NCBI GenBank assembly: GCA_965204495.1
Contig: OZ241989.1
Coordinates: 1,184,312-1,248,311, forward strand
Direction: 5' to 3'
DNA from: Candidatus Hopanoidivoransaceae bacterium
GTDB taxonomy: Bacteria; Actinomycetota; Acidimicrobiia; Acidimicrobiales; Hopanoidiivorantaceae
Length of the DNA stretch: 64,000 nt
Below are positions 3,001 to 52,777 of the stretch, piece after piece. A program made the position numbers and the translations under genes. The notes under the pieces were generated by a model that saw only the letters and a program-made list of their open reading frames with translations, was not told the origin of the DNA and did no database searches. Position 1 is the first letter of the stretch; each line of letters opens with the position of its first letter.

Positions 3001-6000
3001 TAAGGCACGGTGAAAGTAGCGTTTGTAGCCTGCAGCGTAGAACTCAGGCTGCTTACCGGCGTAACAGTAAATGAGCAGCTGCTGCGGGTAACCGATGCGA
3101 GCCTGGTGCTGTCTATGCTGGTGGCGTCCCCGCAGGTGATCGTATAGCCGCTGCCGCTGGTCTCGCTCGCATAGCTAGCAGCATCAACCACCAGAGTCTG
3201 GTTGCGGCCCACCAGCAGCCTGCCCGCGCCAGTCGTGGGCGGGGCGTTGAAAGTGATCGCCGAGTTCAGCCCCACATTGACTGTTATCGTCCTGTCTATG
3301 CTGTGGCCGCCGGTGGAAGTGAAAGTCACGACAAAGGTGGCAGTACCTGTTGATGCTGAATTGAGCGGGTCTATGTTATAGGTGCAGGTGTTAGCCGTGC
3401 GACCGACCGAAGAAAGCCTTGAATGGATATTGCGGGCATCGGAGCACGAAATCGTCCAGGTATTGCTGGCTTCCGTTACATAACCCGAAGCGTCAATCTC
3501 CAAAGTCAAGTTCCGGCCTATGAGCAGACTGCCCGCCCCGGTAGCAGGCGGAATGTTAGCGGTGATAGTGGAATCCGGCCCGATGTTGATGGTGTAAGTC
3601 CCAGAAGCGGTGGCTCCGCCTGTGGAGGTGTATGCCACCGTGAAAGTAGTGTCGCCCTGCGAGCCCACAGCCAGAGTATCCACAGGATCAACAGTGAAAG
3701 AGCACCCATCGCCAGAAGAGCTGCGAGTGACCGTCATCCTGTTGGCATCCACGCCGGTAGCGTCAGCGCAAGTCACCGTGTAGGCAGCATTCTCGCCGCT
3801 CACAGCAGCCAGAGCGTCAATCACCAATGTCCGGTTGCGCCCCAGTGTGAAAGTGCTGGGAGCAGTGAAAGTCAAAGCAGAATCAGGGCCGATACTCACC
3901 GTGACGATGCCGTTCCTGCTATGGCCGCCCTCAGAGGTGAAGGGGACAGTGAAAGTAGTGTCGCCTTGGTTGCCCGGCGTCAAAGCATCAACGGGATCAA
4001 TCGTGAAAGTGCAGCTATTGGCCGTGCGAGTAACCGCCATCTTGTTGGCATCCACGCCCGTAGCGTCGCCGCAAGAGATCGTGTAGCTGCCGTCAGATGC
4101 ATAGCTGGAAGCGTCAATCTCCAAAGTCAGATTCCGCCCCACCCGCAGCCTGCCGGCTCCCGTAGTAGGCGGAGCGTTGTAGCTAATAGTAGAAGCCGCT
4201 CCCACTTCTATGGAGATATTCGCGTTCGTGGAGTCGCCGCCGTCCGATGTGAGCGGGACAGTAAAGGTAGCAGTGCCCTGCGTGGATGTAGGCGTAATGG
4301 TGTAGCCGCAGCCGTTCCCGCTGGAGTCGCGCACCACCGAAGCCAAAGCGACGGTGCCCGTGGTGGGCGCATCGGCTGCGGTGTTGGTGGCTGTGCCGCA
4401 GGTGATGGTGTAGCCGCTGTCCGAGGCGTAGTCCAGCACATTGATGGTCTGGGTGCGGTTGGTGCCGACTTTGAGATTCGTTGGGGCTGTGAAAGTGATG
4501 CTGGAGGCTGCGCCCACATCCAGGGTCAAGGTGCCTGTGGTGGTGTGCCCGCCTGACGAGCGATAGGGGATGGAGATGTCGGCGGTCTGCCCAGAGACCG
4601 ACCCGGCGATTATCGGAATGCGGCAGCCGTCTTGGGTGCCCAAAGAGATGTCGGGGTCGCTCTCGGTGATAGTGCCGCAAGAGATCGTGTAGCTGCCGTC
4701 TGTGGCGTAAGAACTCACATCTATAGTGCGGGTTCTGCTGGCAGCCACAGCAGGATTAGAAGCTGGAGCTGCGAAGACGATGGTGCTGTCGGGGCCGACA
4801 TTGACGGTGAGGGTGCGGGTTATTTCGTGTCCGCCGTCAGAAGTAAAAGTAATGGTAAAGGTGGCGTTGCCTTGCTGGGCCGGTGTCAAGGTGGTGATAG
4901 GCGTGATGGTGTAGGAACAGGTGTTGGCAGTGCGAGCAACGGAAGTGAGCTTGGTGCTGTCAATAGCTGTAGCGTCAGAGCAGGTGATGGTGTGGCCGCT
5001 GCCCGATACTTCAGACACATAATCCGAAGCGTCAATAGCCCGAGTGCGGTTCCGCCCCACAGTCAGGGTTCCGGGGCTGTTCCAGGTGATGGTGCTGTCG
5101 GGGCCGATGTTGACGGTGAATGTGCCAGTAGCCGTAGCACCGCCCGATGAAGTGAGAGGCACAGAAAAGGTAGTGTCGCCCTGGTTGGCCGGGGAGAGCG
5201 AATTCACAGGGTCAACGGTGAAGACGCAGCCTGTGCCAGTGGAGGATCGGGTGACCGCCATCTTGCTGGCATCTACTCCAGTGGCGTCGCCGCAAGTGAT
5301 GGTGTTGTTGCTGTCGGCTTCTGTGGCATGGGTCAGAGCGTTTATCTCCAAAGTGCGGTTCCGGCCGACCTTCAGCCCGGTGGGAGCGGTGAAGGTGAGG
5401 GTGCTGTCGGGGCCGATGTTGACGGTCACGACTCCGTTCGCGGTGGCTCTGCCGTCAGAGGAGAACGGAACAGTAAAGGTAGCGTTGCCCTGCAGGGATG
5501 AACTCAGGGTGCTGATCGGGGTGATAGTAAAAGAACAGGTGTTGGCTGTGCGGGAAACAGAAGTCAGCCTCGTGCTGTCAATGCTGGTGGCGTCCCCGCA
5601 GGTGATCGTGTAGCCGCCGTCTGAGGCATAGTCCGAGGCGTTTATGGTCAAAGTCTGGTTCCGCCCGACCGTAAGATCTGTAGGAGCATTGTAGGTTATG
5701 GAGCTGTCGGGGCCGATATTGACAGTGAAAACCCCAGTAGCCGTAGCACCGCCCGATGAAGTAAACGCCACAGAAAAAGTAGTGTCGCCCTGCGAGCCTG
5801 TGGCCAGGGTGTTCTCCGGATCCACCGTGAAGGTGCAGCTGTTAGCCGCGCGGGTAACAGTCATCTTCGTGGCATCCACCCCGGTAGCGTCGCTGCAAGT
5901 AATGGTGTAGCTGCCGTCTGAGGCATAGCTGGAAGCGTCAATCTCCAAAGTCTGGTTCCGCCCCACTTTCAACGCCGACGGCGCGTTGAAGCTAATGGAA

Positions 6001-7895
6001 GAAGCCGCTCCGACCGTCAAAGTCACCGCCCCCGACTCTGAATGGCCGCCCGAAGAGACATAAGGAACAGTGAAACCGCTAGCACCCGCAGTGCCCGTGA
6101 GAGTAATGGTGTAACTGCAGCTCCCGGCAGAAGCCTGCTCTACGGTGCTGATTTCAGTGGTGTCAATGCTGGTAGCGGCCCCGCAGGTAACCGTGTAAGC
6201 CATGTTCTCGGTTATATAGTCCAGCGCATTGATAGTCAGCGTCAGCAAGTTGCTGCCCTGCGTCAGCTGAGGATCGTTAAAGGTGATAGTAGAAGCAGGC
6301 CCCACCGTGATATTGACAACGCCGTCAACGCTGTGGCCGCCTTCGGAGGTGTAAGGCACCGTGAAGCTAGCCGCGCCCTCCACAGCCGTAGGCGTGATAG
6401 TAAACATACAGCCGCTGCGCGACACCGACATGAGCTCAGTAGTGTCAATGCTGGTAGCCTCCCCGCAAGAAATCGCATAGCCGCTGTGAGACTCGCTCAC
6501 ATAATCCGAAGCGTCAATCACACGGGTGCGGTTCGTGCCCAGCTGCAAGCCAGTAGGCCCCTCGTAGGTGATAGTGGAAGGCGGGCCCACCTCAATGCTG
6601 ATAGTGCCGTTCTCCGTGTCGCCGCCGCTGGAAGTGTAAGGCACAACGAAACTGGCAGAACCCTCCGTGCTCGTAGGCGTGATAGTAAACTCGCACCCGC
6701 TGCGCGACACCGACATGATCTCAGTGGTGTCAATACTGGTAGCCTCCCCGCAAGTGATCGTATAGCTAGCATCTGTCTCGGTTACATAGTCCAAGGCATC
6801 GATCACCTGTGTGCGGTTCGTGCCCACCTTCAACCCCGAAGGCGCATTGAAAGTGATGTTGGACGCAGGGATGACTTGAACGGACACGCTCTGGGTAGAA
6901 GTAGCACCCCCAGAAGAGATATAAGGCACCGAAATGGTGGCGGTTCCTGAGGTAGAGCCAGCGGTGATAGGGATGCTGCAGCCGTTCTGAGTGCCTAGGC
7001 TTATCAGAGCAGACGACTCGGTGATTGTCCCGCAAGTAATCGTGTAGGTGCCGTCAGAAGCATAAGCGCCCACATCAAGCGTGAGAGTGCCGCTAGGTAA
7101 GACAGTCGGGGTAGGCGAAGGCGCGTTAAAAACAATTGTAGAAGCCGGGCCCACCTGCAAACCGATGCGGCCGTTCACCGTGCCGCCGCCCGTGGAAGTA
7201 TAGGGCACAGTGAAGCCGGATGCCCCCTGAACATTCTTAGGCGTTACAGTAAACACGCAGCCGTTGCGCGTTACCGTAGAAATCTCAGTGGTGTCAATGC
7301 TGGTAGCGTTCCCGCAAGAAATCCTAAAATGAGAATGAGTCTCACTCGCATAGAGCGCAGCATTGATATCAAGAGTCCGGTTCGTGGCCACCGACAAACC
7401 AGAAGGCGCAGTGAAAGTAAGATTAGGAGCTGGCCTGACATTGATCACCAACCTACCGCTATAGGTACATTGAAATGTGCCCTGATTGCAGATTTGGAGA
7501 CCTGTATAGCTTTCGCGTCCTGCAGTTGCGGTAGCTCTAGCTGTGACTGTGTAAGCACAGCCATTGCGAGAAATAGAAGAAAACTTGCTTGTAGAGCTAA
7601 GTGTAATATTAGGGCAAGCGGGCGTGCCGGTAGAAGTTATGTATCGGTTTAGATCAAAAGTCGCAGATGTCCCTGCTGTGATCCAAAAGTCATTCAGGTT
7701 GGTATTTGATCCACCAGTTCTGTAAAACCATCGAAAGGTTTGAGCTTCTGCCGGGCTGGATGTGGCCACCGAAACGGCGAACAATGATGCTCCGATCAGA
7801 GCCACCGAGACGAGTGCTACGACAATTTTGCGAAGAGCACGAGGGAGCCAGCCGTGCGTCGCACGGGGGGGGGTGGTCTTAGGCAGCGACTTCAT
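1..7895 (-). CDS. Giant secreted/cell-surface repeat protein, N-terminal >2,600 aa (C-terminus lies beyond position 1)
   Basis: Absent from the ORF track, presumably because it has no stop in the window. None of the listed minus-strand ORFs between 1 and 7895 uses this frame. ATG at 7895 has GAGG 8-11 nt upstream. Hand translation gives MKSLPKTTPPRATHGWLPRALRKIVVALVSVALIGASLFAVSVATSSPAEA (signal-peptide-like), then ~100-aa modules of the type VGRNRTL.IDAS.YASDGSYTI.CGDATG.D....C.FT..P....QG.ATF.V.[FY]TS.GG. The plus-strand ORFs listed here are Arg/Gly/Ala-rich antisense shadows. Confidence 0.8.
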   Translation of the reverse strand, partial: MKSLPKTTPPRATHGWLPRALRKIVVALVSVALIGASLFAVSVATSSPAEAQTFRWFYRTGGSNTNLNDFWITAGTSATFDLNRYITSTGTPACPNITLSSTSKFSSISRNGCAYTVTARATATAGRESYTGLQICNQGTFQCTYSGRLVINVRPAPNLTFTAPSGLSVATNRTLDINAALYASETHSHFRISCGNATSIDTTEISTVTRNGCVFTVTPKNVQGASGFTVPYTSTGGGTVNGRIGLQVGPASTIVFNAPSPTPTVLPSGTLTLDVGAYASDGTYTITCGTITESSALISLGTQNGCSIPITAGSTSGTATISVPYISSGGATSTQSVSVQVIPASNITFNAPSGLKVGTNRTQVIDALDYVTETDASYTITCGEATSIDTTEIMSVSRSGCEFTITPTSTEGSASFVVPYTSSGGDTENGTISIEVGPPSTITYEGPTGLQLGTNRTRVIDASDYVSESHSGYAISCGEATSIDTTELMSVSRSGCMFTITPTAVEGAASFTVPYTSEGGHSVDGVVNITVGPASTITFNDPQLTQGSNLLTLTINALDYITENMAYTVTCGAATSIDTTEISTVEQASAGSCSYTITLTGTAGASGFTVPYVSSGGHSESGAVTLTVGAASSISFNAPSALKVGRNQTLEIDASSYASDGSYTITCSDATGVDATKMTVTRAANSCTFTVDPENTLATGSQGDTTFSVAFTSSGGATATGVFTVNIGPDSSITYNAPTDLTVGRNQTLTINASDYASDGGYTITCGDATSIDSTRLTSVSRTANTCSFTITPISTLSSSLQGNATFTVPFSSDGRATANGVVTVNIGPDSTLTFTAPTGLKVGRNRTLEINALTHATEADSNNTITCGDATGVDASKMAVTRSSTGTGCVFTVDPVNSLSPANQGDTTFSVPLTSSGGATATGTFTVNIGPDSTITWNSPGTLTVGRNRTRAIDASDYVSEVSGSGHTITCSDATAIDSTKLTSVARTANTCSYTITPITTLTPAQQGNATFTITFTSDGGHEITRTLTVNVGPDSTIVFAAPASNPAVAASRTRTIDVSSYATDGSYTISCGTITESDPDISLGTQDGCRIPIIAGSVSGQTADISIPYRSSGGHTTTGTLTLDVGAASSITFTAPTNLKVGTNRTQTINVLDYASDSGYTITCGTATNTAADAPTTGTVALASVVRDSSGNGCGYTITPTSTQGTATFTVPLTSDGGDSTNANISIEVGAASTISYNAPPTTGAGRLRVGRNLTLEIDASSYASDGSYTISCGDATGVDANKMAVTRTANSCTFTIDPVDALTPGNQGDTTFTVPFTSEGGHSRNGIVTVSIGPDSALTFTAPSTFTLGRNRTLVIDALAAVSGENAAYTVTCADATGVDANRMTVTRSSSGDGCSFTVDPVDTLAVGSQGDTTFTVAYTSTGGATASGTYTINIGPDSTITANIPPATGAGSLLIGRNLTLEIDASGYVTEASNTWTISCSDARNIHSRLSSVGRTANTCTYNIDPLNSASTGTATFVVTFTSTGGHSIDRTITVNVGLNSAITFNAPPTTGAGRLLVGRNQTLVVDAASYASETSGSGYTITCGDATSIDSTRLASVTRSSCSFTVTPVSSLSSTLQATNATFTVPYTSSGGATATGTISVKVGPDSSVTFTAPSTFTLGRNRTLVIDAAAAISGENSEYSINCADATGVDATKMTVSHTGSSCSFTVDPVDTLAAGSQGDTTFAVAFTSTGGATASGTFTVNIGPDSTITYSSPGTLTVGRNRTLEIDASGYVAETSGSSYTISCSDAAGVDTSKTAVSRTANTCTFTIDPVDALTPANQGNTTFAITFTSTGSHTITRTITVNIGPDSEITFMAPASHPAIAASRTRTIDVSSYATDGSYTISCGAITESDPDITLGTQDGCRIPVTAGATPGQTADISIPYSSSGGATLTSTLTLDVGAASSIVFNAPTGLTVGTNRTLAIDALDYAADGGYTISCGTATNTAADVPTTGTVALTSVVRDTSGNGCGYTITPTSTQGTATFTIPYTSDGGDTANGNISITVGAASTISYSSPGTLRIGRNLTLEIDASSYASDGSYTISCADATGVDNTKLTSVTRTANTCTYTIDPVDALAPADQGTTTFSVVFTSTGGHIITRTITVNIGPDSALTFTPPTGLKIGRNRTLAIDALAAVSGENAAYTVSCADATGVDANKMTVTRSSVGSRCSFTVDPVDTLAVGSQGDATFAVAFTSTGGATASGTFTVNIGPDSTIAYTAPAGLTVGRNRTLSVDLSSAATDGSYTVTCGDATNIHSRFSSVTRPDAANMPCVFAAAPLTTASLGTATFIVPFTSDGGAASTGTVSVTIGQPSAIVFTAPDPALQVGINRTRVIDASDYVRDGNYTISCLDATGVDSTKLTSVTRSSAGNGCGYTINPISTLTQSQQGHATFTVPYRSAGGHVLNQVFDITVGPASTIVYTAPVGANALTVGHNRTLTIDASSYVADGSYTIACADARSIHASIDHIIRHIVRHGCDFTITPVAGMTGAATFTIPYSSAGGHTLDGQVSVTIGAASTITYSAPSGIVIPVSTARTVDVSSYATDGSYTISCGDATGINASRLASVTHTGSSCSFEVTAAANQGSTSFVV
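100..7330 (-). repeat. Tandem ~300-nt coding modules with a ~2.45-kb higher-order repeat
   Basis: The plus-strand motif GTGTAGCTGCCGTC recurs about every 290-310 nt (for example at ~125, 420, 1035, 1640, 2230, 4085, 4685). The stretch 1633-1960 is nearly identical to 4081-4440, and 2225-2300 to 4677-4750 (offset ~2450 nt). Confidence 0.85.
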
Positions 7896-8817: not shown

Positions 8818-8876
8818 GGGTTCTCCTGTCTGCATCGTTTCTGCTGGGATGTGCGCCGCGCACCGTTCTGCCTAAT

Positions 8877-8985
8877 CGCAAGTTTAACTCGGGAGTGTGA
8901 GAGCATCAGCACAGCCAGGCAGAACCGAACTCTCACCGCCCGAACTAGCGCAAGTTTAACTCGGGAGTGTGAGAGCATCAGCACA
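8877..8985. repeat. Perfect 37-nt direct repeat flanking a 35-nt unrelated segment (72-nt period)
   Basis: CGCAAGTTTAACTCGGGAGTGTGAGAGCATCAGCACA occurs at 8877-8913 and 8949-8985. The intervening 8914-8948 is GCCAGGCAGAACCGAACTCTCACCGCCCGAACTAG. Confidence 0.9.
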
Positions 8986-9017
8986 AGCACTGCTTCGGGT
9001 GGCTAGTATCGCAAGGA

Positions 9018-9953
9018 ATGGAGACTTCCAGCACCGCCGCTCTCGCTTCGCAGAATTCTGGCTCGCTAGCTCTGGAAGTTGAAGACATCTCGGTTGTGTA
9101 TCAACGCTCCATCAAAGCCCTGCAGGGCGTGAGCCTCAAGGTGCCGGAGGGCGAGGTCGTGGCGATTTTGGGCGCCAACGGCGCAGGCAAGACTACCTTG
9201 CTCCGCACCATCAGCGGACTGCTGGGCTTTCACGGCGGGGCTGTTGCTTCGGGGTCGTATCGCCTGTGGGGGCGACCAGCCGAAAAGCTAGCCCCGCAGA
9301 CGATAGTGAGGCGGGGCTTGGCACAGGTAATGGAAGGCAGGCGCATCTTGGCGCAGCTTACAGTGGAAGAAAACCTTGACTTGGGCGCCATCTCGGTGAC
9401 TAAGAAAGAAGTCCGAGAGGCTAAGCCTCCAATCGTGGAAGAAAACCTTGACCCAGGCGCCATCTCGGTGCGCAGCCGCCGCGATACTGCCGACCGCAAG
9501 CACCCTCGGCTGTGGCCGATCAATTTGCTGCGTGAGAGCGTGCGCAGCCGCCGCGACACTGCCGCCCGCAAGCACAGCTTGTTCGAGCAGTTTCCACAGC
9601 TGAGCGACCGCCGGCATTCGGTGGCGGGCTATCTCTCTGGCGGGGAGCAGCAGATGCTCGCTATCGCCAGAGCGTTGATGAGCGATCCGCGCTTCATCAT
9701 TTTGGACGAGCCTTCGCTCGGCTTGGCCCCGATAATCGCCCATCAGATCGCCGACATCATCTCTGAGATAGCCGCCGGCGGCACGACGGTGCTGCTGGTG
9801 GAGCAGAACGCGGCTATGGCCCTTGCGCTGTGCCGCTATGCCTATGTGTTCCAGACGGGCAAGGTTGCGAAGGAGGGCACGGCTGAAGAGCTGCTGGACG
9901 ACCCATACATGCAAGAGCTTTATCTGGGGCTTGCCGGGGCAGACGCAGCATGA
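9018..9953 (+). CDS. livF: Branched-chain amino acid ABC transporter ATP-binding protein (LivF type) with two 24-aa insertions
   Basis: Walker A GANGAGKTTLL, signature LSGGEQQMLAIARAL, Walker B FIILDEPSLGLAP. Its stop overlaps the next gene's start (ATGA). Confidence 0.85.
   Translation: METSSTAALASQNSGSLALEVEDISVVYQRSIKALQGVSLKVPEGEVVAILGANGAGKTTLLRTISGLLGFHGGAVASGSYRLWGRPAEKLAPQTIVRRGLAQVMEGRRILAQLTVEENLDLGAISVTKKEVREAKPPIVEENLDPGAISVRSRRDTADRKHPRLWPINLLRESVRSRRDTAARKHSLFEQFPQLSDRRHSVAGYLSGGEQQMLAIARALMSDPRFIILDEPSLGLAPIIAHQIADIISEIAAGGTTVLLVEQNAAMALALCRYAYVFQTGKVAKEGTAEELLDDPYMQELYLGLAGADAA
9363..9575 (+). repeat. Two adjacent units of 36-nt duplication plus 36-nt insert inside livF
   Basis: A1 9363-9398 and A2 9435-9470 are 33/36 identical. 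B1 9468-9503 and B2 9540-9575 are 34/36 identical. The inserts 9399-9434 and 9504-9539 are unrelated to the flanks. Confidence 0.9.
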
Positions 9954-10834
9954 CTGAAGCAACTGCTGTCAAAGATTCGGCGTCTGCTGCGGGCCAATCG
10001 CAATCTGCTGCCAGCAGATCTGATGCTGAACTTCGCGGGGCAGAACTCAGCGAGGCAGAACCGCGCGGAGCAGAACTTCGCATAGAAAATGTGAGCTTCG
10101 GAGTGGGCGGCATCTCTATCTTGGAAGATGTCAGCCTCACGGTGCGGCCCGGCGAGCTGATGGGAATCATCGGGCCGAACGGAGCGGGCAAGTCTTCGCT
10201 GTTCAACTGCATCAGCGGCATATATGTGCCGACCGTCGGGCGCATCGCGTTGGATGGGCAGCCGCTCACAGGGCTGCGACCTGTGGCAGTCGCTCGCCGA
10301 GGCGTTGCCCGCACATTCCAAAATCTCGCGCTTTTTGACAACCTGAATGTCGCCGACAATCTCATGCTGGGCCGCCACCGTCTTATGCGCACGGGTTTCG
10401 CAACGGGTGCAGTGTGGTTCGGGCGGGCACGGCGGGAGGAAGCGATCCATCGCCAGGCTTGTGCTGAGCTTGTGGAACTGCTCGGCTTGGGAGCATCAGC
10501 GCATCTGCCTGTGGGGCTGCTGCCGTACGGGGCGCAGAAGCGAGTGGAGCTAGGGCGAGCTTTGGCGTCTTCTCCCGATGTGCTGCTGCTGGACGAGCCA
10601 GTGGCGGGGATGAACACGGAAGAGACCGAGCAGATGTCGGCGATCCTGCGAAACATCCACCAGCAGCTGGACATCACGATAGTGCTAGTGGAACACGATG
10701 TGCACATGGTGGTGGGCCTGGCCGAGCGCATCTGCGCGATCAACTTCGGCCAAGTGGTGACAGTGGACGAGCCGCAAGCCGTGGTGTCGCACCCGACGGT
10801 CGTGGAAGCCTATTTAGGGTCGGAGTGGTCGTAA
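9950..10834 (+). CDS. livG: Branched-chain amino acid ABC transporter ATP-binding protein (LivG type)
   Basis: Walker A GPNGAGKSSLFN, Walker B LLLDEPVAGMN. LivG-like C-terminus HPTVVEAYLG. Confidence 0.85.
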   Translation: MTEATAVKDSASAAGQSQSAASRSDAELRGAELSEAEPRGAELRIENVSFGVGGISILEDVSLTVRPGELMGIIGPNGAGKSSLFNCISGIYVPTVGRIALDGQPLTGLRPVAVARRGVARTFQNLALFDNLNVADNLMLGRHRLMRTGFATGAVWFGRARREEAIHRQACAELVELLGLGASAHLPVGLLPYGAQKRVELGRALASSPDVLLLDEPVAGMNTEETEQMSAILRNIHQQLDITIVLVEHDVHMVVGLAERICAINFGQVVTVDEPQAVVSHPTVVEAYLGSEWS

Positions 10835-11838
10835 TGAAAGACACCAGATCGCCACTCCACGACACTCTCGTCTATACCGCATGGACGCTCGGCGCGCTCG
10901 CAGCGGTCTTGCTCATCGTGTCTTTGGCCGACGGCGGCGACGGGCGGGAGAAGTTCCTGCAGCTGCTGGTTGGCGGCATCGCCTTGGGGAGCATCTATGC
11001 GCTCTTGTCGTTCGGCTTCGTTATCGTCTATAAAGCCACAGGCGTGTTCAACTTGGCGCAAGGCGGTTTCGTGCTGCTCGGCACATATCTGGCGTATCAG
11101 TTCTACACCGACTGGGGCTGGATGTTCGGGCTGGCTCTGGCGGCTGCCGTGCTCGCGATGGCAGCTATCGGGGCAGGCATAGAGCGGGCCGTGATGCGCA
11201 AAATGCTCACCAAGCCCACCTTCACAGCCATAATGGTGACGCTCGCCATCCTCATCGTGATAGAGCAGATCACTCGCAGCATCTGGAATTCGCCGGGTCT
11301 GGTGCTTGCCGCTCCCTGGGGCACAGGGCGCATTCAGCCCGGCGGCGTGACCATCCGATATCTGGATTTCTGGACGGTCGGCTTCACCTTCGTGCTGCTC
11401 GGGGCTTTCTTCTTGTTTTTCCGCTACACCCGCATCGGCTTGGGGATGCGAGCCACGGCTTTTGACAGAGAGGTAGCCTCGGCGCAAGGCGTGCGGGTGG
11501 GCTTGTCGTTCGCGCTTTCTTGGGCGATTGCCGCTGCCGTGGCGACCGTGGCCGGCGTTCTGCTCACGAGCCGCAGCGGGGGCGCGCTCACCCCTGCCAT
11601 CAGCTTTGTGGCCCTGCGGGCTTTCCCGGCGATGATCCTAGGCGGGCTGGATTCCGCAGGCGGAGCTGTGGCAGGCGGCGTGATAATAGGCGTGGCCGAA
11701 GTGATGGTGCAAGGCTATGTGGATGTGGACTGGCTTGGGGAGAGCTTTGAGACGGTGGTGCCGTATCTAGTAATGCTGCCGATCCTGCTATGGCGCCCCT
11801 CCGGTCTTTTCGGCACAAGAGCAGTGGAGCGGGTTTAG
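10834..11838 (+). CDS. livH: Branched-chain amino acid ABC transporter permease (LivH type)
   Basis: The track ORF starts at GTG 10825. ATG 10834 shares one base (A 10834) with the livG TAA stop (10832-10834) and has GGAG ~8 nt upstream. Multi-pass membrane protein in operon context. Confidence 0.8.
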   Translation: MKDTRSPLHDTLVYTAWTLGALAAVLLIVSLADGGDGREKFLQLLVGGIALGSIYALLSFGFVIVYKATGVFNLAQGGFVLLGTYLAYQFYTDWGWMFGLALAAAVLAMAAIGAGIERAVMRKMLTKPTFTAIMVTLAILIVIEQITRSIWNSPGLVLAAPWGTGRIQPGGVTIRYLDFWTVGFTFVLLGAFFLFFRYTRIGLGMRATAFDREVASAQGVRVGLSFALSWAIAAAVATVAGVLLTSRSGGALTPAISFVALRAFPAMILGGLDSAGGAVAGGVIIGVAEVMVQGYVDVDWLGESFETVVPYLVMLPILLWRPSGLFGTRAVERV

Positions 11839-11855
11839 GGGATTGGAAGATTGAG

Positions 11856-13079
11856 ATGAATACAATAACCCGACTTTTGAGACGAGGGTTCGGAGGCAAC
11901 AGCGTGCCCAGCCAACCTCGCTCAAGCTCAGCCAACTCCCCAGAAAAGCCGCCTGCTGGCTCTTCAAGTCTGTCTTCTGCTGCATCCCCACCGCGATTCC
12001 TCCCAGGCTGGGATGCCAGGGCCGCTGTCTTCGCAATCGTGGTTTTGATCGCGCTGCTGCCAGTGCTCTTGGACAGCCCGTTCTGGATGAATGTGCTGGT
12101 CACCGCCGGTGCTTATTCTGCCGCAGCCATCGGTTTGAATATCCTCACGGGCTACACAGGGCAAGTCTCGCTCGGACACGCAGCGTTCTTGACCATCGGC
12201 GGCTACGCAGCAGGATACTTCGGCGCATCGCAAGGCTGGACGCTGATTCTATGGCTGGGAATGGCTGCAGTGTGCGGAGCGATAGTCGGCGGGGTGGTCG
12301 GCCCGTTCGCCCTGCGGGTGAAAGGCGACTATCTGGTGGTGGTGAGCTTGGCTTTGCTGTTCATCACCTCCCATGTGGTGGAAAACTGGGATAGCGTCAC
12401 CGGCGGGCACGACGGCATTTCAGTGAGCAAAGCTTCACTGGCTTTCGGCCCCATCAACTTCGGCGACCTGCGTCTGTTCGGCAGGGAATTCAGCCGAGAG
12501 GAGGGCTTGTTCTATCTCGCTTGGCTGCTCGTGGGCATTTTTGCCGTGATCGCACGCAACATCATGCGGTCTCGCCCCGGACGAGCCCTGCAAGCCGTAC
12601 GCGACCGCGACACCGCCGCCGAAGTCTTAGGCGTAAGCAGCGCCCGCTACAAGATCGCCGCTTTCGTGCTCTCCAGCGCCATGGCAGCCACCGCAGGCGG
12701 AGTGATAGCCGTAGCGCAAAGATTCCTAACCCCGAACGAGCCGCTAGCCGAGCTTTTCATCTCCATCCAGTTCGTAGCCATAATAGTGGTAGGAGGCGTG
12801 GCGACCATCTACGGCTCCGTGCTAGGAGCAGTGCTGCTGGTAGCCCTCCCAGAAGTCATCAAAGAATACACCCACTGGTTTGACTTCACAGTCCCGCTTT
12901 TTGACCGACCCCTAGTGTCGTCCTCAGGCTTGGATCAAGGCTTGTTCAACCCCGGTTCATTCAGCAACCTGCTCTTCGGATTGCTGCTAGTAGGCTTCCT
13001 GCTGCTCTGGCCCAGGGGTATCGCAGGCTGGCTACAATCGCTCCGCGCCCTCCTGCGCACACTATCGCTTCGCCGCTAA
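11856..13079 (+). CDS. livM: Branched-chain amino acid ABC transporter permease (LivM type)
   Basis: The track ORF is 11790..13079. ATG 11856 (MNTITRLL) avoids a long overlap with livH. Polytopic; LivM-like motif GQVSLGHAAF. Confidence 0.75.
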   Translation: MNTITRLLRRGFGGNSVPSQPRSSSANSPEKPPAGSSSLSSAASPPRFLPGWDARAAVFAIVVLIALLPVLLDSPFWMNVLVTAGAYSAAAIGLNILTGYTGQVSLGHAAFLTIGGYAAGYFGASQGWTLILWLGMAAVCGAIVGGVVGPFALRVKGDYLVVVSLALLFITSHVVENWDSVTGGHDGISVSKASLAFGPINFGDLRLFGREFSREEGLFYLAWLLVGIFAVIARNIMRSRPGRALQAVRDRDTAAEVLGVSSARYKIAAFVLSSAMAATAGGVIAVAQRFLTPNEPLAELFISIQFVAIIVVGGVATIYGSVLGAVLLVALPEVIKEYTHWFDFTVPLFDRPLVSSSGLDQGLFNPGSFSNLLFGLLLVGFLLLWPRGIAGWLQSLRALLRTLSLRR

Positions 13080-13080
13080 T

Positions 13081-13911
13081 TCAATTTGTGGCTGTCTCTG
13101 AAATTTGTACTGCTGATGGCCTGCCCAGTGTGCCATCCCAGATGTAAGCGATGAAACGACCTGAAGCGGAAAGTGTGTATTGCGTGTTTTCTTCTCTAGT
13201 TATGGTGATATTTATTGGATTGCAGATAACCGCAATGGCTGAAAAGTCTCCATGCACTAGTACATTTTCAGGCAAGTGTTGGTTTAGAATGGGCAAACCG
13301 ACATAATCCAGCTTTTCTCGCAATTTTGCGGCAGTTTTCGGATGGCACATCAAAAGCATATTGCTTGAAGTTGTGTTGTCTGTTGCTAGGTGTTCAAGAT
13401 TCAGTACTCTTTCATAGGAAGCATATTGGTTCCAAAATTTTTCAGTCAGTTCTTTGTTGCATCTTCTGGCATACAGTGGCAGCAGTCTGTTGAAAACCGT
13501 GTGTTCCGTCATAGTAGCCATTGTGTGGTCAGAGAACGGAACGCTGTCGGGTCGTTTCCAAGGTGTGGCCTGTAACCCTATACTTAGTTCAGCGGCTACT
13601 GTTGCTTCTCTGAATTGAATATCTGGAATGGGCAGTCCATGATAAAGATGCTCGCGAGCATCAGATATGACGGGCTGGCGGAACCCTGGCTGCTTCAATT
13701 CGCCTTCTAAATCTTTGACGCAGAAAGCTGATACTCTCGCCCAGAGAGGAGCCTCTTTCCTCATTCGATGCCGCACGCGAGACAGTGTTTTTGGATTGCA
13801 ATCCAAAGACATGAATGTTTTTGTAGACGGCTGACTGTCTTTTGGAGCAAACAGGTGTCGTCCTGTCCACTCTAGGGTATAAGACACAAAGGGGATCTCC
13901 GTTGATGTCAT
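13081..13911 (-). CDS. Hypothetical protein (276 aa), translationally coupled partner of the upstream AAA+ ATPase
   Basis: Its ATG overlaps the ATPase stop (ATGA at 13908-13911), with AAGGAG just upstream. AT-richer than the flanks. I recognise no motif. Confidence 0.6.
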   Translation of the reverse strand: MTSTEIPFVSYTLEWTGRHLFAPKDSQPSTKTFMSLDCNPKTLSRVRHRMRKEAPLWARVSAFCVKDLEGELKQPGFRQPVISDAREHLYHGLPIPDIQFREATVAAELSIGLQATPWKRPDSVPFSDHTMATMTEHTVFNRLLPLYARRCNKELTEKFWNQYASYERVLNLEHLATDNTTSSNMLLMCHPKTAAKLREKLDYVGLPILNQHLPENVLVHGDFSAIAVICNPINITITREENTQYTLSASGRFIAYIWDGTLGRPSAVQISETATN

Positions 13912-15395
13912 GTGCTTACTCCTTGTTGCAGCAGATAATTTTGCCTGACTTCCATTGCCAGCATAAAATGGCTTAAGGGCACGGACTTGATTTCGCTATG
14001 GTGATCAACGGGCGCATCGGGAGTTACCACATAAGTATTCCCCGCCAACTGGTTGTATCCGCTTTTTGACAGCAGTTTTTTTACTCCCTGCAGTTTGCGC
14101 ATTTTATTTGTATAGCTGCTGCCGACCTCTATTGCCAAAGGGGTGCCGCCCCGTTCTTCTTCCAAAACGAAATCTATCTCGCAGCCTTTGTCACGCAGAT
14201 GGGAAAGCTTAGCTCTGCCGAGCGTAAGTTTCACAAGTCCGTTCAAAGAAGCGGCGACCATGTTCTCAGCAGACCATCCTCGTTCGCTGTCGCGCATCTG
14301 TTCTGGAGTTCTAAAGCTCAAAGCTGCCGGAACAGAGTTGTCATAGAAAAAAACTTTTTTCTTTCGCTTCGGGCCTGAATAATTTGGCAGTAAGAACAGC
14401 AGCATTGCATCATCAAGTGCAGCAAAATATCTGTCTAGCGTGGTTTCTGCCATGCTGATATCTGGGTTTTTCGCCCATTCTTTTCTGACAACTTCCCGTC
14501 CAGGATGCTCTGCTGCTAGACGCAATATAGCAGAAGCTTTAATCGGGTTGGATATTTTAGAGTACTCTTCGATGTCCCGTTGAAGTATTTGGGTGATAAT
14601 CTGTCTGATGTGTCCGTGCCTTTCAACCATGAACTCTGCCTTTTCTCCATCATTCATCATTGGGCGAGGATACAAATTTTCTGGACACCCTCCTGTAGAT
14701 GCTAGATCCCAAAAATATTCCTGCAGAAGTTTGTCATTAAAGTCTGGAGCAATATGCTTAATTATTTCCCTCAACGGCTTGTCAGCAATTTGAAAAAAAT
14801 CTGGAAACGGCAGCGAACTGCGCACAAGATTTGCGGCTTCTTGCATCTGAGATGGAAGCAAATAATATTCAGATGCTCTGCCAGCCCAGCTTTCTATCAT
14901 TCCCCTGTTCAGTGCTGATGAAGAGCCTGATGTGCATACTATTCTGAACGGATACAGGGCTGGTTCATCATATGCCCGTTTCAGCGTTTTGTTCCACCCT
15001 CCTGAATACACTATTTCGTCCAGCAGAAGAAAACAAGGTTCTTTTTCTGAGGCGCCAGTGATAGATTTGATTCCCTCCAGAAGTTCGTGCAGTCTAATGC
15101 CTGTAAAAACATCGTCATCCAGAGACAAAAAGACTAGTTTTTCAGGTTGGCACCTTTGTTCTGTGACTGCTCGTTTGGCTAGATGCTTAAGGACTGTGGT
15201 CTTGCCTACCCTTCTGGGCCCCAGAATGACTTTGTGGCAGGCTCTTTGAGATATTGGCGTGGTGGTGATTTCTCGCCACAGCATCTGCGCTAGGGTCCGT
15301 TCTTCGCATGTATTCGCTTGGCTGTGAAAGCGGCCTGCGTCTGCCATCCAAGGGCTGTTCGCTTGGATGATGCGTCTAAGAAGTTCGATGTCCAT
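13908..15395 (-). CDS. AAA+ ATPase of the COG1373 type (AAA_14 plus DUF4143-like C-terminal region)
   Basis: Walker A GPRRVGKTT and Walker B LLLDEIVY. The track start 15413 is TTG. ATG 15395 (MDIELLRR) is preferred because TGCTATAAT ends 6 nt upstream, implying a leaderless transcript. Confidence 0.75.
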   Translation of the reverse strand: MDIELLRRIIQANSPWMADAGRFHSQANTCEERTLAQMLWREITTTPISQRACHKVILGPRRVGKTTVLKHLAKRAVTEQRCQPEKLVFLSLDDDVFTGIRLHELLEGIKSITGASEKEPCFLLLDEIVYSGGWNKTLKRAYDEPALYPFRIVCTSGSSSALNRGMIESWAGRASEYYLLPSQMQEAANLVRSSLPFPDFFQIADKPLREIIKHIAPDFNDKLLQEYFWDLASTGGCPENLYPRPMMNDGEKAEFMVERHGHIRQIITQILQRDIEEYSKISNPIKASAILRLAAEHPGREVVRKEWAKNPDISMAETTLDRYFAALDDAMLLFLLPNYSGPKRKKKVFFYDNSVPAALSFRTPEQMRDSERGWSAENMVAASLNGLVKLTLGRAKLSHLRDKGCEIDFVLEEERGGTPLAIEVGSSYTNKMRKLQGVKKLLSKSGYNQLAGNTYVVTPDAPVDHHSEIKSVPLSHFMLAMEVRQNYLLQQGVST

Positions 15396-15401
15396 GTGTC
15401 T

Positions 15402-15410
15402 ATTATAGCA
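15402..15410 (-). promoter_or_regulatory. Extended -10 TGCTATAAT of the ATPase cassette (leaderless start)
   Basis: The reverse complement of 15402-15410 is TGCTATAAT, 6 nt before ATG 15395. The palindrome CTATATCTT-N4-AAGATATAG lies at ~15432-15453 upstream. Confidence 0.55.
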
Positions 15411-15551
15411 CAAATTGGCAAAATGTGGTATTTAAATGCTATATCTTCTGCAAAGATATAGTATCAAGGGTGATATTTTGACAAAAGCTAGTCTTCATCC
15501 TCATGGCGAAGCCGAATTATGCGTTGCTTGGGCTTAGGCCGTTCTGGGATT

Positions 15552-16709
15552 TTAGAGCCTCTCCAAGATTGTCACATTGGCTTGGCCGCCGCCTTCGCAC
15601 ATGGTTTGTAGGCCGTAGCGGCCGCCTGCGCGTTCTAGTTCGTGGAGGAGGGTGGTCATCAGGCGGGCTCCGGTGCAGCCTAGGGGGTGGCCTAGCGATA
15701 CTGCGCCGCCGTTCACATTTACTTTTTCGTGGGGCACATCGCATTCTTTCATCCATGCCAGCACTACCGAAGCGAAAGCCTCGTTGCATTCAAAGAGGTC
15801 TATGTCGTCTATCGCCATGCCGCTTTTTTCCAGAGCGTATTTGGTGGCGGGGATCGGGCCGGTCAGCATGATCACAGGGTCTGTGCCGCGCACCGACATG
15901 TGCTGAATGCGGGCCATCGGCTTGAGGCTGTGATCTTTGACTGCTTTCTCCGAGGCGATCAGCAGGGCGGCCGCGCCGTCTGAAATCTGGCTTGACACGG
16001 CTGCGGTGAGGCGGCCGCCTTCTATGAGGGGCTGCAGCTGCGACATTTTTTCCAGCGATGTGTCGCGGCGGGGGCCTTCGTCGGCAGCTAGGCCGTTGAT
16101 GGGGATGATTTGGGTTTCAAAGCGGCCTTCGTCTGTGGCGCGGATGGCTCGCTGATGGCTGGCGAACGCGAACTCTTCCATGTCTTCGCGGGTGATTTCC
16201 CAGCGGCGGGCGATCTCTTCGGCGCCCCAGAACTGCGACACTTCGGCGGTGCCGTAGCGCGCCACCCAGCCTTTTGAGCCGTGAAACGGGCTTTCGTCTT
16301 CCACGCCTATATGTTCGGCGACCGTCATAGCCGAGCCGATGGGAATCATAGACATGTTCTGCACGCCGCCTGCCACCACGAGGTCGTTCACTTCTGCCAT
16401 CACGGCCTGGGCTGCGAAATGCACGGCCTGCTGACCCGAACCGCACTGGCGATCTATGGTGGTGCCCGGTATCTCTTCTGGCAGCCCGGCCACCAGCCAG
16501 CAGGTGCGCCCGATGTCGCCCGCTTGGGGGCCGATGGCGTCCACGCAGCCCCACATCACATCGTCAATGGCTGTTGGGTCTACATCGGTGCGGTCTAGGA
16601 GTTCCTTGATGGGGATGGCACCTAGGTCGGCTGGGTGCATGTGCGATAAGCCGCCGCCTCGTCTTCCGACCGGCGTGCGGACAGCGTCTATGATGTATGC
16701 TTCGTTCAT
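15552..16709 (-). CDS. Acetyl-CoA C-acyltransferase (thiolase)
   Basis: Active-site region QCGSGQQAV and C-terminal NVNGGAVSLGHPLGCTGARL...CEGGGQANV. Confidence 0.9.
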   Translation of the reverse strand: MNEAYIIDAVRTPVGRRGGGLSHMHPADLGAIPIKELLDRTDVDPTAIDDVMWGCVDAIGPQAGDIGRTCWLVAGLPEEIPGTTIDRQCGSGQQAVHFAAQAVMAEVNDLVVAGGVQNMSMIPIGSAMTVAEHIGVEDESPFHGSKGWVARYGTAEVSQFWGAEEIARRWEITREDMEEFAFASHQRAIRATDEGRFETQIIPINGLAADEGPRRDTSLEKMSQLQPLIEGGRLTAAVSSQISDGAAALLIASEKAVKDHSLKPMARIQHMSVRGTDPVIMLTGPIPATKYALEKSGMAIDDIDLFECNEAFASVVLAWMKECDVPHEKVNVNGGAVSLGHPLGCTGARLMTTLLHELERAGGRYGLQTMCEGGGQANVTILERL

Positions 16710-37819: not shown

Positions 37820-37942
37820 GACTGTCAATGAAACCCAGCTACTGCTTTAAAAGTCTGAACCGAGAACACGCGTCATTTTCAACTAGTGAAACTGTCAACT
37901 AGGTAAAACTGCCAACCCGATGAAATTCTCAATCCGCTAGCA
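37820..37942 (+). repeat. Five copies of a ~17-nt CTGTCAAC...GAAA-type unit between cas4/cas1 and the binding-protein gene
   Basis: GACTGTCAATGAAA (right after the cas4/1 stop), TTTTCAACTAGTGAAA, CTGTCAACTAGGTAAAA, CTGCCAACCCGATGAAA and TTCTCAATCCGCTAGCA. Confidence 0.6.
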
Positions 37943-37944
37943 TT

Positions 37945-39204: not shown

Positions 39205-39226
39205 GATGCTTCGGGGTTAGGACGCG
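39186..39226 (+). repeat. 16-nt unit TAGGAYGCTTCGGGGT x2.5 spanning the stop codon of the binding-protein gene
   Basis: TAGGACGCTTCGGGGT (coding) TAGGATGCTTCGGGGT TAGGACGCG. The true stop TAG is at 39202-39204. Confidence 0.85.
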
Positions 39227-39389
39227 CGGCTGATTCCTGTGTTTCGTGTTTCTGTGGCATGGTCTTGGCAGCTGGTTGGGAAATTCAGTCTTGATGAACT
39301 TCACGCTTGTTCGCAGCACTCTTTCTGGTGTCTCGCCGGGTTTGAAAGTCTGATTGGCAAGCCTGTGCGGTTCTGAGTGAGGGAGATAT

Positions 39390-42391: not shown

Positions 42392-44062
42392 TTAGAAATC
42401 TAGGTCTGGGGCGGGTTCTAGTTGTCCTGCTGACAGGGGGGTTTCTGCTTCGCTTTCTGTGAGGAACACCACGTCGCCGTCTATGAATTGTGGTCGTAGG
42501 GGGTCTTTTCTGTGATACAAATTGCAGGGCTCTAGCACTCTGTAATTTTTGCCCTTGGTCACACCGCCTCTCAAAATCATCTCTTGGACTGATTGAGCGT
42601 TCACAGCCAGCAAGAAAACAGCCAATGGCAATTCACCGATGCCTAGAGGGTGATGTTCGGGGCGAACCACAGGGCTGCGTGGTGTCACCATGTATGAGTT
42701 TCCCCTGAATTTTTCTTTCTCTTCTACAAGTTTTTTTAATCCCTTCAGATGATGATCCTTTGAGTTTCCTACTTCAAACGCCAAGGGATCCTCTGTCTCT
42801 CCGCCGAAAATGAAATCTACCTCATATGTTTCTCTTAGGCGCCAATATTCCAGAGTCATCCAACTGTTCTCTGCCAGCTCTTTTAATGCCGCTCCCGCCG
42901 CATTTTCCAGCACATGGCCTTTCTTTGGGAGATCTTCCAGCCCTGATGTCCCCATTCTCCTAACGGCCGAAGGAACGGCTGGGTCAAAGAAGCAGTATTT
43001 CTGGTTGCCAGCCTTCCGCATCGGTGCGTCGGAATAGGCGTCTAGTCGGAAGAGAATGTTCGCATTCTCCAAATGGGAGAGATATGTGCTTGTTGTTTTT
43101 CCCTGAGCTTCGCCCAGCTGTTTGCCAATCTTGGCAACTGTGGTCTGCTTGCCGAGCAGACCCGCGACAGAATGCATTACGGCCTCAAGAGTTTTCCGAT
43201 CTCTGACATCATGGAAGGCAACTATGTCTTTGTCAACCGCCCTGCCTACTACCTCTTTGAGGTATCCATGATCCCGTCTGACCGCTGCTCTGAGGCTCGG
43301 GTTATGCGTGGAATGGTCATATCCAGTGATGCACACGGGGTATCCGCCTGTGATGAGGTATCTGTCCAGAGCAGTCGCTACCTGCTCGGGAACGGGCGAG
43401 ACCTGCGGGATTGATTGAAGCCGTGCTCGCAAAGATGGATATCCTGTTCTGCACCATTTTGGAATGATGCTGGCATCGCCGAAAACAAATTCGCACCATT
43501 CCATGAAATTGCAAGCCATCAAGCGATATTCTGCCCAGCGGTCTGGGCCGCTTTCTGGTTTGCGCTTGTCGTTATTGGCAAGGATCATCCCAGAACTGGA
43601 AGACGCTAAAACTCTGATGGGTCTGTTTTGAGCGAGAAGATTTTTTAGCCACAGGTCCCAGTCGTCGCTTGCTCCTATCTCGTCCAAGAACAGAAAAATC
43701 GGCTCATCGATGCTGGCATCGGGGCACAGCAGCAACAAGGCATCTGCTATCGCCCCTAGATTTTCCATCTGAAGCTCCGGGTGATCCAGTTCCACGAAAA
43801 AGATGCGCTCTCTGGGTATTCCCTTGTCTAGCAAGCTGTCAATAGACTGCCAAAGCAGCGTGGTTTTGCCAGACCTGCGGGGGCCCAGCACAAGATGGTA
43901 GCATCGCGGGTCGTCTCGGATGAGGGTGTCGGGCAGAACTCGCATCATGTGCCTGTGCTTGGGCAGGGATTTCTCCGTCAGCTCGGACGAGTCTGTTTTC
44001 CACCCGTTCTGATCCTCGAGTATTTCTTGGAAGCGGGGTATGTCTATGTATTGAAATGCCAT
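42392..44062 (-). CDS. AAA+ ATPase of the COG1373 type (AAA_14 plus DUF4143-like), second copy
   Basis: Walker A GPRRSGKTT and Walker B FLFLDEIGASDDW. The track start is 44098; ATG 44062 (MAFQYIDI) has GGAGG 7 nt upstream. AT-richer than the array and the cas4/1 region. Confidence 0.75.
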   Translation of the reverse strand: MAFQYIDIPRFQEILEDQNGWKTDSSELTEKSLPKHRHMMRVLPDTLIRDDPRCYHLVLGPRRSGKTTLLWQSIDSLLDKGIPRERIFFVELDHPELQMENLGAIADALLLLCPDASIDEPIFLFLDEIGASDDWDLWLKNLLAQNRPIRVLASSSSGMILANNDKRKPESGPDRWAEYRLMACNFMEWCEFVFGDASIIPKWCRTGYPSLRARLQSIPQVSPVPEQVATALDRYLITGGYPVCITGYDHSTHNPSLRAAVRRDHGYLKEVVGRAVDKDIVAFHDVRDRKTLEAVMHSVAGLLGKQTTVAKIGKQLGEAQGKTTSTYLSHLENANILFRLDAYSDAPMRKAGNQKYCFFDPAVPSAVRRMGTSGLEDLPKKGHVLENAAGAALKELAENSWMTLEYWRLRETYEVDFIFGGETEDPLAFEVGNSKDHHLKGLKKLVEEKEKFRGNSYMVTPRSPVVRPEHHPLGIGELPLAVFLLAVNAQSVQEMILRGGVTKGKNYRVLEPCNLYHRKDPLRPQFIDGDVVFLTESEAETPLSAGQLEPAPDLDF

Positions 44063-44411
44063 CGTTCTACCTCCGTTATCTGAATTATGTATCTGCATTA
44101 TACATGTTTTTCAGTTATATGACAACCTATTTTGTTGATGATTTTGCCATATATTGGAGATTGATAGCATTTTCTAGGATTTTAAGGCTTATAGAACTGG
44201 AAATCTTGGAATATCTAGAATATAGATATCCAAATTCCAAGAAGCTAGATTTGTCCATCACAGACGGAATTAGCTTGCCTAATTCGCTTCTGCTATGTTT
44301 GTGCCGGCGCAGGCGAGTGAAGTGGTCGGCGTGTCAGTGATTGTGCCGTATGTGACCTGCCGAGAGCACGGCATCGATTATCTCTGCGGTTAGTGCTTTC
44401 ACCGCGCCGGC

Positions 44412-48295: not shown

Positions 48296-52777
<4,482 letters not shown>

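Follow-up and report, generated by a model that had tools for sequence, protein, structure and literature searches.

The window analyzed here, a 64,000-nucleotide stretch of DNA from an uncultured Acidimicrobiales bacterium, carries on its minus strand a two-gene operon lodged between livM and a thiolase gene. The first gene encodes an AAA+ ATPase and the second a 276-residue protein of an orphan family, which we term the partner. The flanking genes end with stops at 13079 (livM) and 15552 (thiolase), and the GC content falls to 0.42-0.49 over 13000-15600 as against 0.58-0.64 in the flanks (0.463 for the module versus 0.568 for the rest of the window), which bears out the AT-rich cassette that a sequence-only reading of this DNA had described between these stops. 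L008 (OY282367.1), the chromosome of an Acidimicrobiales metagenome-assembled genome (MAG), shares the flanks (95% identity in the thiolase gene, 92% in livM) and carries other cargo between them; blastn homology to it stops at window position 15540 and restarts at 13057, and the variable segment therefore spans 13058-15539. In the list of its features, dN/dS denotes the ratio of nonsynonymous to synonymous substitution rates.

13058..15539, no strand: variable AT-rich segment (cassette and promoter region), from blastn against L008 and the GC profile
13081..13911, minus strand: partner gene, 276 amino acids, orphan family without a family match, fast-evolving (dN/dS 0.22-0.35)
13908..15395, minus strand: AAA+ ATPase of the COG1373 type (AAA_14 + DUF4143), 495 amino acids, PADLOC PDC-S01 class, from Pfam and PADLOC matches (dN/dS 0.07-0.11)
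14838..15233, minus strand: AAA_14 P-loop domain, residues 55-186 (Pfam PF13173, E 5.4e-21, above the gathering score)
14118..14582, minus strand: DUF4143 domain, residues 272-426 (Pfam PF13635, E 2.8e-18)
13908..13924, minus strand: translational coupling, read from the sequence: AAGGAG at 13919-13924, a 7-nt spacer and an ATGA overlap at 13908-13911
15402..15410, minus strand: extended -10 box TGCTATAAT, ending 6 nt before the ATG and kept in orthologues
15436..15464, no strand: inverted repeat over the -35 region (arms 15436-15447 and 15453-15464), candidate operator

Below, clade A comprises the window cassette and the close relatives of its partner, and clade B a distant partner subfamily.

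The ATPase gene and the layout of the operon

The open reading frame (ORF) of the ATPase is open from a TTG (13908..15413), and its conserved start is the ATG at 15395: MDIELLRR is the N-terminus in all orthologues, and one orthologous lineage, L003, has a stop three codons upstream of that ATG. Hence, we take the protein to be the 495-residue product of 13908-15395. Its two Pfam domains uphold the family that the sequence-only reading had named, with both Walker motifs in this gene (Walker A GPRRVGKTT at 15195-15221; Walker B LLLDEIVY at 15006-15029); the match to DUF4143 scores 66.6 bits against a cut-off of 28.1 and covers profile positions 1-159 of 160. In an alignment of 11 ATPase homologues G59-K65 and D126/E127 are invariant, as are E406, D408 and E423 of the DUF4143 motif E406-I-D408 ... 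E423-V-G (14127-14180). The position of the canonical (D/E)xK lysine is occupied by Gly/Ala in 11/11, with a basic residue a few positions further on. Steczkiewicz et al. (PMC3424549) placed DUF4143 (COG1373) in the PD-(D/E)xK phosphodiesterase superfamily. A search of the PDB at the sequence level related the ATPase to a single solved structure, ORC4, over the P-loop region alone (E 0.003).

When run against PADLOC, as the sequence-only reading had envisaged, the cassette ATPase is matched by seven PDC-S01 models (best E 1.2e-32) and the partner by no family; the same class also takes in a clade-B ATPase (1.1e-30) and a paralogue adjacent to the CRISPR array of the window (1e-32). PDC-S01 is an ATPase fused to a PD-(D/E)xK domain that was found by guilt-by-embedding (PMC12988326; bioRxiv 10.1101/2024.01.29.577857). 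It is one of 145 "phage defence candidates" (PDCs), nominated from genes embedded in BREX, DISARM or type I restriction-modification loci (bioRxiv 10.1101/2024.01.29.577857), and by report PDC-S01/COG1373 ranks fourth in frequency among the "defence systems" of prokaryotes, its copies numbering in the tens of thousands (PMC12988326). The defense label of the class is itself that of a candidate.

Upstream of the ATPase, a standard sigma-70 two-hexamer scan passes over the promoter because it lacks a -35 match, and a direct pattern search was used instead. The extended -10 box is the sole match to TGNTATAAT in the 64 kb; with 0.62 matches expected by chance, this count alone is not significant. 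The arrangement of TATAAT, 6 nt and the start codon is common to clade A, clade B and P0009, a homologue encoded without a partner, whereas more distant solo ATPase homologues have a GGAGG leader in its place. The 6-nt spacing given by the sequence-only reading is thus confirmed, and with the box kept in orthologues we infer that the cassette mRNA is leaderless.

The palindrome noted by the same reading is present upstream of the ATPase, as 12-nt arms of 92% complementarity, but its spacer is of 5 nt rather than the four reported. Its outer arms, CTATAT/ATATAG, are kept in 3/4 orthologous lineages. A palindrome of different sequence, CTTATTTtagAAATAAG, is seen at the same position upstream of the clade-B ATPase (L093, about 4445-4465), and the solo homologue P0019 (in L096, 4930-4960) has an AT-rich palindrome, GATTAGCATATTTTTAAAATATGCTAATC, at a similar distance from its start codon. 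The occurrence of such other AT-rich palindromes before related ATPase genes suggests a putative operator that is family-wide but divergent in sequence.

At the other end of the gene, the stop of the ATPase and the start of the partner overlap as ATGA (on the plus strand, cat at 13909-13911 and tca at 13908-13910). The translational coupling proposed from this overlap and the AAGGAG upstream of it stands, since the junction is identical in three other lineages (L001, L003 and L007). We regard both the ATPase family and the operon structure as secure.

The partner family and its linkage to the ATPase

The orphan status of the partner, already suspected from its sequence, held up in every collection searched and is secure. 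Among 5.8 billion clustered proteins it has five close clusters (73-98% identity), and in a set of 1.84 billion representatives a single cluster at the 50% identity level. An exhaustive phmmer search of these representatives returned its own cluster and two weak matches (4e-5 and 3e-4), which proved to be 35-40-residue Ig-like repeat units of giant surface proteins and were judged to reflect a short beta-strand pattern, not homology. Pfam, NCBIfam, PADLOC and PHROGs, queried with the lone sequence and also with the full set of 30 family members, gave sub-threshold noise only; the candidates set aside here were DUF6138 (0.099), SagC (0.024) and phrog_17017, a family of unknown function that matched 11/30 partner members (best 0.002), with only 27-residue stretches aligned. 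Sequence and profile searches of the PDB yielded nothing meaningful (EssC 0.15, SarA 0.36), and no relatives were found on IMG/VR viral contigs, in JGI metagenomes or, by tblastn, in GenBank phages. Likewise, other ORFs in the neighborhood of related ATPases (173 and 145 residues in L088, 596 residues in L089, 336 residues in L001, and the cargo ORFs of L008) are all unrelated to it.

The structure prediction envisaged by the sequence-only reading was carried out twice with AlphaFold2 and gave no fold: alignments of 6 and of 30 sequences led to pLDDT (predicted local distance difference test) values of 29.3 and 36.8, both unusable. When the second model was compared with the PDB by Foldseek, about 29 of the top 50 entries had the HK97 fold, including encapsulins (7bcv, 7lis, 7kq5) and the capsids of T5, phi29, a gene transfer agent (GTA), T7 and T4. 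Further, hhalign sets the GDF segment of the partner (residues 219-248) on the GDF segment of the Thermotoga maritima encapsulin (residues 219-245; sequence verified against 3DKT), and the length of the partner is close to that of encapsulins (about 265-280 residues). One might hence picture the partner as a very divergent HK97-fold protein, capsid- or encapsulin-like, domesticated as a shell or decoy and coupled to the ATPase. We consider this highly improbable: the best E-value was 0.74 with a TM-score of at most 0.23, on a model of pLDDT 36.8; the other model gave MHC and immunoglobulin (Ig) matches and no capsids in the PDB fold search, a BFVD search was mixed, and none of these was significant; and hhalign scored no better than for unrelated controls (E 0.3, probability 0.2%). 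No significant structural or profile similarity to HK97-fold capsids or encapsulins was thus found, nor any PHROG or Pfam capsid match, nor relatives on viral contigs or in phage genomes. The fold matches being non-significant and mutually contradictory between the models, no fold is assigned to the partner.

All five close clusters lie directly after an ATPase gene, with the same ATGA junction, in the order permease, thiolase, ATPase, partner, livM. In addition, the ATPase P0010, at 41% identity to that of the cassette, is followed after 2 nt by an ORF of 303 amino acids, collinear with the partner in a pairwise alignment (25% identity over 162 residues, E 8e-4). With these two proteins as seeds, a profile search recovered 24 further clusters of 288-303 residues, the clade-B partners, at about 24% identity to the partner of the window. 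Homology of the two clades is backed by hhalign (E 7.8e-4 over 197 columns, as against 0.3-0.8 for six unrelated neighbor proteins) and by reciprocal searches among 6,612 decoy ORFs with hidden Markov models (HMMs): the six best non-self matches of the clade-A HMM are six clade-B partners, and 8/8 clade-A partners fall within the ten best non-self matches of the clade-B HMM. All 29 partner cluster representatives are full length. The clade-B pairs have another fixed site, with a trehalose-phosphatase/glucoamylase gene ahead of them and one for a GNAT acetyltransferase behind; the ATPase and the partner are thus tightly coupled at two unrelated loci, and the module is therefore old and linked. 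The co-occurrence that the sequence-only reading had wished to see was borne out in that every partner homologue found directly follows a related ATPase or its remnant, including those of the distant subfamily at the other locus. The linkage to one ATPase sub-clade is, in our view, secure.

The GNAT gene of clade B (L091, L093, L094 and L095, about 6897-7560; 213-217 amino acids, Acetyltransf_3 7e-22) overlaps the partner stop by 4 nt (ATGA) and has no counterpart in clade A; it may be either a host neighbor or a third component of the module. The clade-A partner P0114, more than 90% identical to that of the window, is recorded on a contig of 161,393 bp, and the contig of L093 that bears a clade-B module (ERZ25070167:ctg392511) is also of 161,393 bp. 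Hence, the two modules are more likely to be paralogues in a single genome than orthologues from different taxa.

Evolution of the partner and of the insertion site

The ATPase and the partner differ sharply in their rates of change, as seen in the dN/dS values of the two clades and their neighbors:

Clade A, ATPase: 0.07-0.11
Clade A, thiolase: 0.05-0.11
Clade A, permease: 0.08-0.10
Clade A, partner: 0.22-0.35
Clade B, ATPase: 0.03-0.08
Clade B, GNAT acetyltransferase: 0.07-0.20
Clade B, partner: 0.34-0.57

Overall, dN/dS of the partner is 3-10 times that of its neighbors, and in clade A its protein changes 3-4 times faster. The excess of replacement changes, measured by codon windows as the ratio of nonsynonymous to synonymous polymorphism (pN/pS), is concentrated in the same two segments in both clades:

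13582..13671, minus strand: partner variable segment 1, codons 81-110 (pN/pS 0.67 at the top in clade A, 0.72-0.74 in clade B)
13222..13371, minus strand: partner variable segment 2, codons 181-230 (pN/pS 0.49-0.57 in clade A, 0.8-1.27 in clade B, 1.27 being reached in one window)

The cores at codons 131-170 and 211-270 are conserved, with pN/pS of 0.15-0.2 in the conserved core segments. As judged from these ratios the partner is under purifying selection, and the pattern is what a folded protein with two variable regions on its surface would be expected to show; diversifying selection is consistent with it but not proven by it. In clade B the disparity between the two genes is greater. Between L091 and L095 the ATPase DNA is identical and the flanks are 96-98% identical, whereas the partner has a synonymous divergence (dS) of 0.34 and only 70-85% nucleotide identity; between L093 and L095 the partner is divergent only over its first ~350 nt. 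Read from these comparisons, the clade-B partner alleles are mosaic, with breakpoints at or inside the partner gene. Accelerated and mosaic evolution of the partner is thus, like the variable insertion site to which we now turn, a secure result.

In L008 the interval equivalent to window 13058-15539 (9170-12661) is filled by an unrelated AT-rich cargo of 3.5 kb with small ORFs and no remnant of the cassette. This cargo includes an overlapping pair of ORFs (178 and 161 amino acids), the second with a sub-threshold HEPN match (E 0.008); about 600 bp of the pair match L088 11148-11760, a stretch 3.6 kb away from the solo ATPase P0009, at 66% DNA identity, and small cassettes hence seem to be shared between such islands. 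L001 retains the cassette and has an extra insert of 3.2 kb (43% GC) between the partner and livM (8823-12165), with three unannotated ORFs of 336, 118 and 112 amino acids. Direct repeats of 156 bp from the livM 3' end (90% identity; 8834-8989 and 12166-12321) flank the insert, which adjoins a 123-bp copy of an internal thiolase segment (8993-9115, corresponding to window 16041-16163); it has the look of a scar left at the livM 3' end by integration or recombination.

Around the window cassette no flanking repeats like those of the L001 insert were found, save a weak 19-nt imperfect inverted pair just within both borders of the segment (14/19 bases; CGCACACTATCGCTTCGCC / GGCGAAGCCGAATTATGCG, at 13056-13074 and 15505-15523). 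Its score was matched by 4/500 shuffles of the border windows and its livM-side arm is coding (the final livM codons), and the pair may be due to chance. No tRNA or Rfam family was found at the livM-thiolase junction. In the window livM and the partner are convergent, with their ends 1 nt apart (TAA at 13077-13079, t at 13080, partner stop tca at 13081-13083), which leaves no space for terminators; in L003 and L007 this gap is of 44-66 nt, and the final ~7 livM codons lie inside the variable segment. A few kilobases away, just upstream of the liv ABC-ATPase genes, L007 (12956-14617) and L001 (16445-16822, cut) carry a third AAA_14 + DUF4143 gene, of 553-554 amino acids and 38-42% identical to the CRISPR-adjacent paralogue of the window; it is absent in L003 and in the window itself (equivalent position about 8835-9018) and thus represents another presence/absence polymorphism.

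The sequence-only reading had also reported that the ATPase family recurs next to the CRISPR array without the partner, and this we could corroborate. The paralogue directly abuts the array, between it and the cas genes, in a locus (36005-54073) whose genes suggest a type I-G/I-U-like system:

42392..44098 (44062 from Met13), minus strand: paralogous solo AAA_14 + DUF4143 ATPase, not part of the cassette, 26% identical to the cassette ATPase
39968-42362: CRISPR array, about 33 repeats of CTATCGGGGGGCAGTCCGCCCCCCCTTCATTGAAGC
36005-37819: Cas4-Cas1 fusion, on the other side of the array from the solo ATPase
48295-51144: Cas3 with a C-terminal HD domain
51131-52777: GSU0054 family protein
52781-54073: GSU0053 family protein
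37945-39204: periplasmic-binding-protein gene, interspersed in the locus
46790-47287: HSP20 gene, interspersed in the locus
45223-46659 and 47363-48355: two ORFs without Pfam matches, interspersed in the locus

Embedding in a CRISPR-Cas locus thus holds for the paralogue; the cassette has metabolic genes on both sides, although its site is a variable hot spot. P0009, the nearest solo homologue, lies among genes for SLFN_AlbA_2, DUF433 and DUF6036 proteins. We take the surroundings of these two solo genes as a defense context that speaks for the proposal below.

A candidate two-component module and its alternatives

We think it possible, if somewhat short of an even chance, that the cassette is a lineage-restricted two-component variant of COG1373/PDC-S01 with an anti-invader role, in which the partner serves as a recognition or regulatory subunit. 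On this proposal the module would act against invading DNA and the ATPase with its nuclease-type domain would be the effector. The sequence-only reading had instead seen an NTPase joined to an unknown effector. This we would not retain: a nuclease-type domain is already present in the ATPase (DUF4143; PMC3424549), and since the partner has no recognizable catalytic motif and evolves fast, the role of a recognition or regulatory subunit suits it better than that of an effector. A defense function of the cassette is plausible. A bolder form of the proposal, which we hold to be rather doubtful, would make COG1373/PDC-S01 the base of a new two-component immune system, with the partner as its subunit for invader sensing or specificity; diversifying selection would act on the two variable segments of the partner, and co-existing strains would exchange its alleles by recombination.

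Several observations weigh against the two-component proposal as a whole. With the canonical (D/E)xK lysine replaced by Gly/Ala, nuclease activity of the ATPase is uncertain; because the partner is without a detectable fold or motif, the role given to it is purely our inference; and validation is reported as outstanding for the majority of core-set PDCs (PMC12988326). The elevated dN/dS of the partner, being below 1, can equally mean relaxed constraint, and the strain comparisons behind the mosaic alleles of clade B come mostly from one metagenome assembly. Further, P0009 (49% identity), which a neighbor-joining tree places as sister to clade A (100% bootstrap), has no partner, nor do the ATPases P0011 (39%), P0019 and P0016 (about 30% identity). 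In L092 (5645-6900), a member of clade B, the ATPase is a pseudogene with both ends deleted, of which only residues 248-373 are left, while the partner (299 amino acids) and the downstream GNAT gene beside it are intact. Moreover, no mobility genes were found at the cassette, and in clade A dS is comparable for the cassette and the flanking housekeeping genes across four lineages, which therefore implies co-divergence and long residence, not recent transfer. The sequence-only reading had looked to presence and absence at the livM-thiolase junction, and had named as a point against itself that both genes might be core genes at this position in all relatives. Its expectation is borne out in part by the other cargo of L008, but the cassette is a long-term resident, and the equality of dS with the flanks goes part of the way to that adverse outcome.

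The solo ATPases and the decay in L092 mean that the pairing is not obligatory, which keeps alive the view of the downstream ORF as a lineage-specific hitch-hiker under relaxed constraint, with the ATPase working alone like the solo PDC-S01/COG1373 proteins and no joint function of the two. Solo ATPases are indeed the rule (P0009, P0011, P0019, P0016 and the window paralogue), L092 shows that the two genes are separable, and the partner, in which no domain was found, has a dN/dS of 3-10 times that of its neighbors, yet below 1 overall. We nevertheless consider a mere passenger unlikely, as the pair has been kept through considerable divergence (ATPase 41%, partner ~24%) and relocation, with tight coupling at both loci; the cluster representatives are full length in 29/29 cases; and the conserved core of the partner has a pN/pS of 0.15-0.2.

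The same facts bear on a selfish, toxin-antitoxin-like addiction module, in which the ATPase-nuclease would be potentially toxic, the partner would neutralize it and the pair would regulate itself via the upstream palindrome. The compact overlapping operon with a palindrome over its promoter resembles type II toxin-antitoxin systems; L092, where the putative toxin has decayed and the partner is kept, shows the tolerated direction of loss; and the hot spot hosts other small overlapping gene pairs, such as the weakly HEPN-like pair in L008. However, the non-obligatory pairing counts against strict toxin-antitoxin dependence, and P0009, sister to clade A, has its ATPase intact and no partner beside it, which indicates that the ATPase is not intrinsically lethal. 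The genes are also much larger than those of type II systems (495 and 276 amino acids), the partner in particular being large for an antitoxin and lacking a match to any DNA-binding domain, and no PADLOC or Pfam toxin-antitoxin model or domain matches either of them. Addiction is accordingly, to our mind, very unlikely.

An altogether different function is suggested by the ORC4 similarity, the sole one to a PDB sequence: an ORC/Cdc6-like AAA+ DNA-binding ATPase with an accessory partner might act in chromosome maintenance, repair or regulation. Long vertical residence, purifying selection that is as strong on the ATPase as on housekeeping genes, and the absence of mobility genes are in keeping with it. 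That the module is missing from the close relative L008, with unrelated cargo instead, and that its composition is atypical for the genome, that it has multiple divergent paralogues, one of them inside a CRISPR-Cas locus, and that the partner alleles are mosaic and hypervariable, all speak against such a housekeeping role, which we rate as quite unlikely.

Among catalogued systems the two-component module with a recognition or regulatory partner, which we favor, is closest to PDC-S01, with which it shares the AAA_14 + DUF4143 architecture (HMM E 1e-32); the window paralogue, for its part, is embedded in a defense locus (CRISPR-Cas), the kind of setting from which the class was nominated. It differs in that PDC-S01 is defined as a single gene, whereas the cassette and the second subfamily have a coupled orphan gene; in the Gly/Ala of the cassette subfamily at the canonical nuclease lysine; and in the predicted leaderless layout of its mRNA. 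Septu (PtuA/PtuB), PARIS (AriA/AriB) and Gabija (GajA/GajB) combine a P-loop ATPase with a second protein, their genes often overlap, and they reside in variable genomic islands. The cassette is likewise an overlapping operon of a P-loop ATPase and a second gene in a variable island. However, no model of these systems matches it, save PtuA at E 0.05 over 26 P-loop residues, and none matches the partner. Moreover, these systems have a recognizable nuclease or helicase domain in the second protein or the ATPase, whereas the cassette has its nuclease-type domain in the ATPase, and its partner cannot be assigned.

We advance the following possible mechanism. Transcription would proceed from the extended -10 promoter, with an mRNA that begins at or beside the ATG and is hence probably leaderless; leaderless mRNAs are common in Actinobacteria. 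The AT-rich inverted repeat over the -35 region may serve as an operator. The ATPase, with its AAA_14 and PD-(D/E)xK-type DUF4143 domains, would be the conserved engine and, by family-level analogy, the probable effector that targets nucleic acids. The partner would be produced by translational coupling through the AAGGAG and the ATGA overlap and, as its evolutionary pattern would have it, may bind the ATPase as a variable recognition or regulatory subunit, not as a separate effector, either sensing a fast-evolving component of the invader or being itself the target of the invader's counter-measures. The module resides at a recombination and integration hot spot between thiolase and livM, where it has long been inherited vertically, and would most likely act against phages or other mobile DNA.

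Thus, what is known in this cassette is the ATPase, one more member of a very large class, and what is new is a conserved two-gene architecture with a hypervariable orphan. Were the partner a mere passenger, the finding would shrink to one more copy of PDC-S01 in an AT-rich hot spot of an uncultured actinobacterium. Even so, a natural two-gene PDC-S01 with a rapidly diversifying partner offers a concrete entry point for experiments, and brings in a protein family that has no annotation and evolves in an unusual manner. Should the partner prove to be a specificity subunit, it would open a first mechanistic route into a candidate defense gene that is among the most abundant in prokaryotes.

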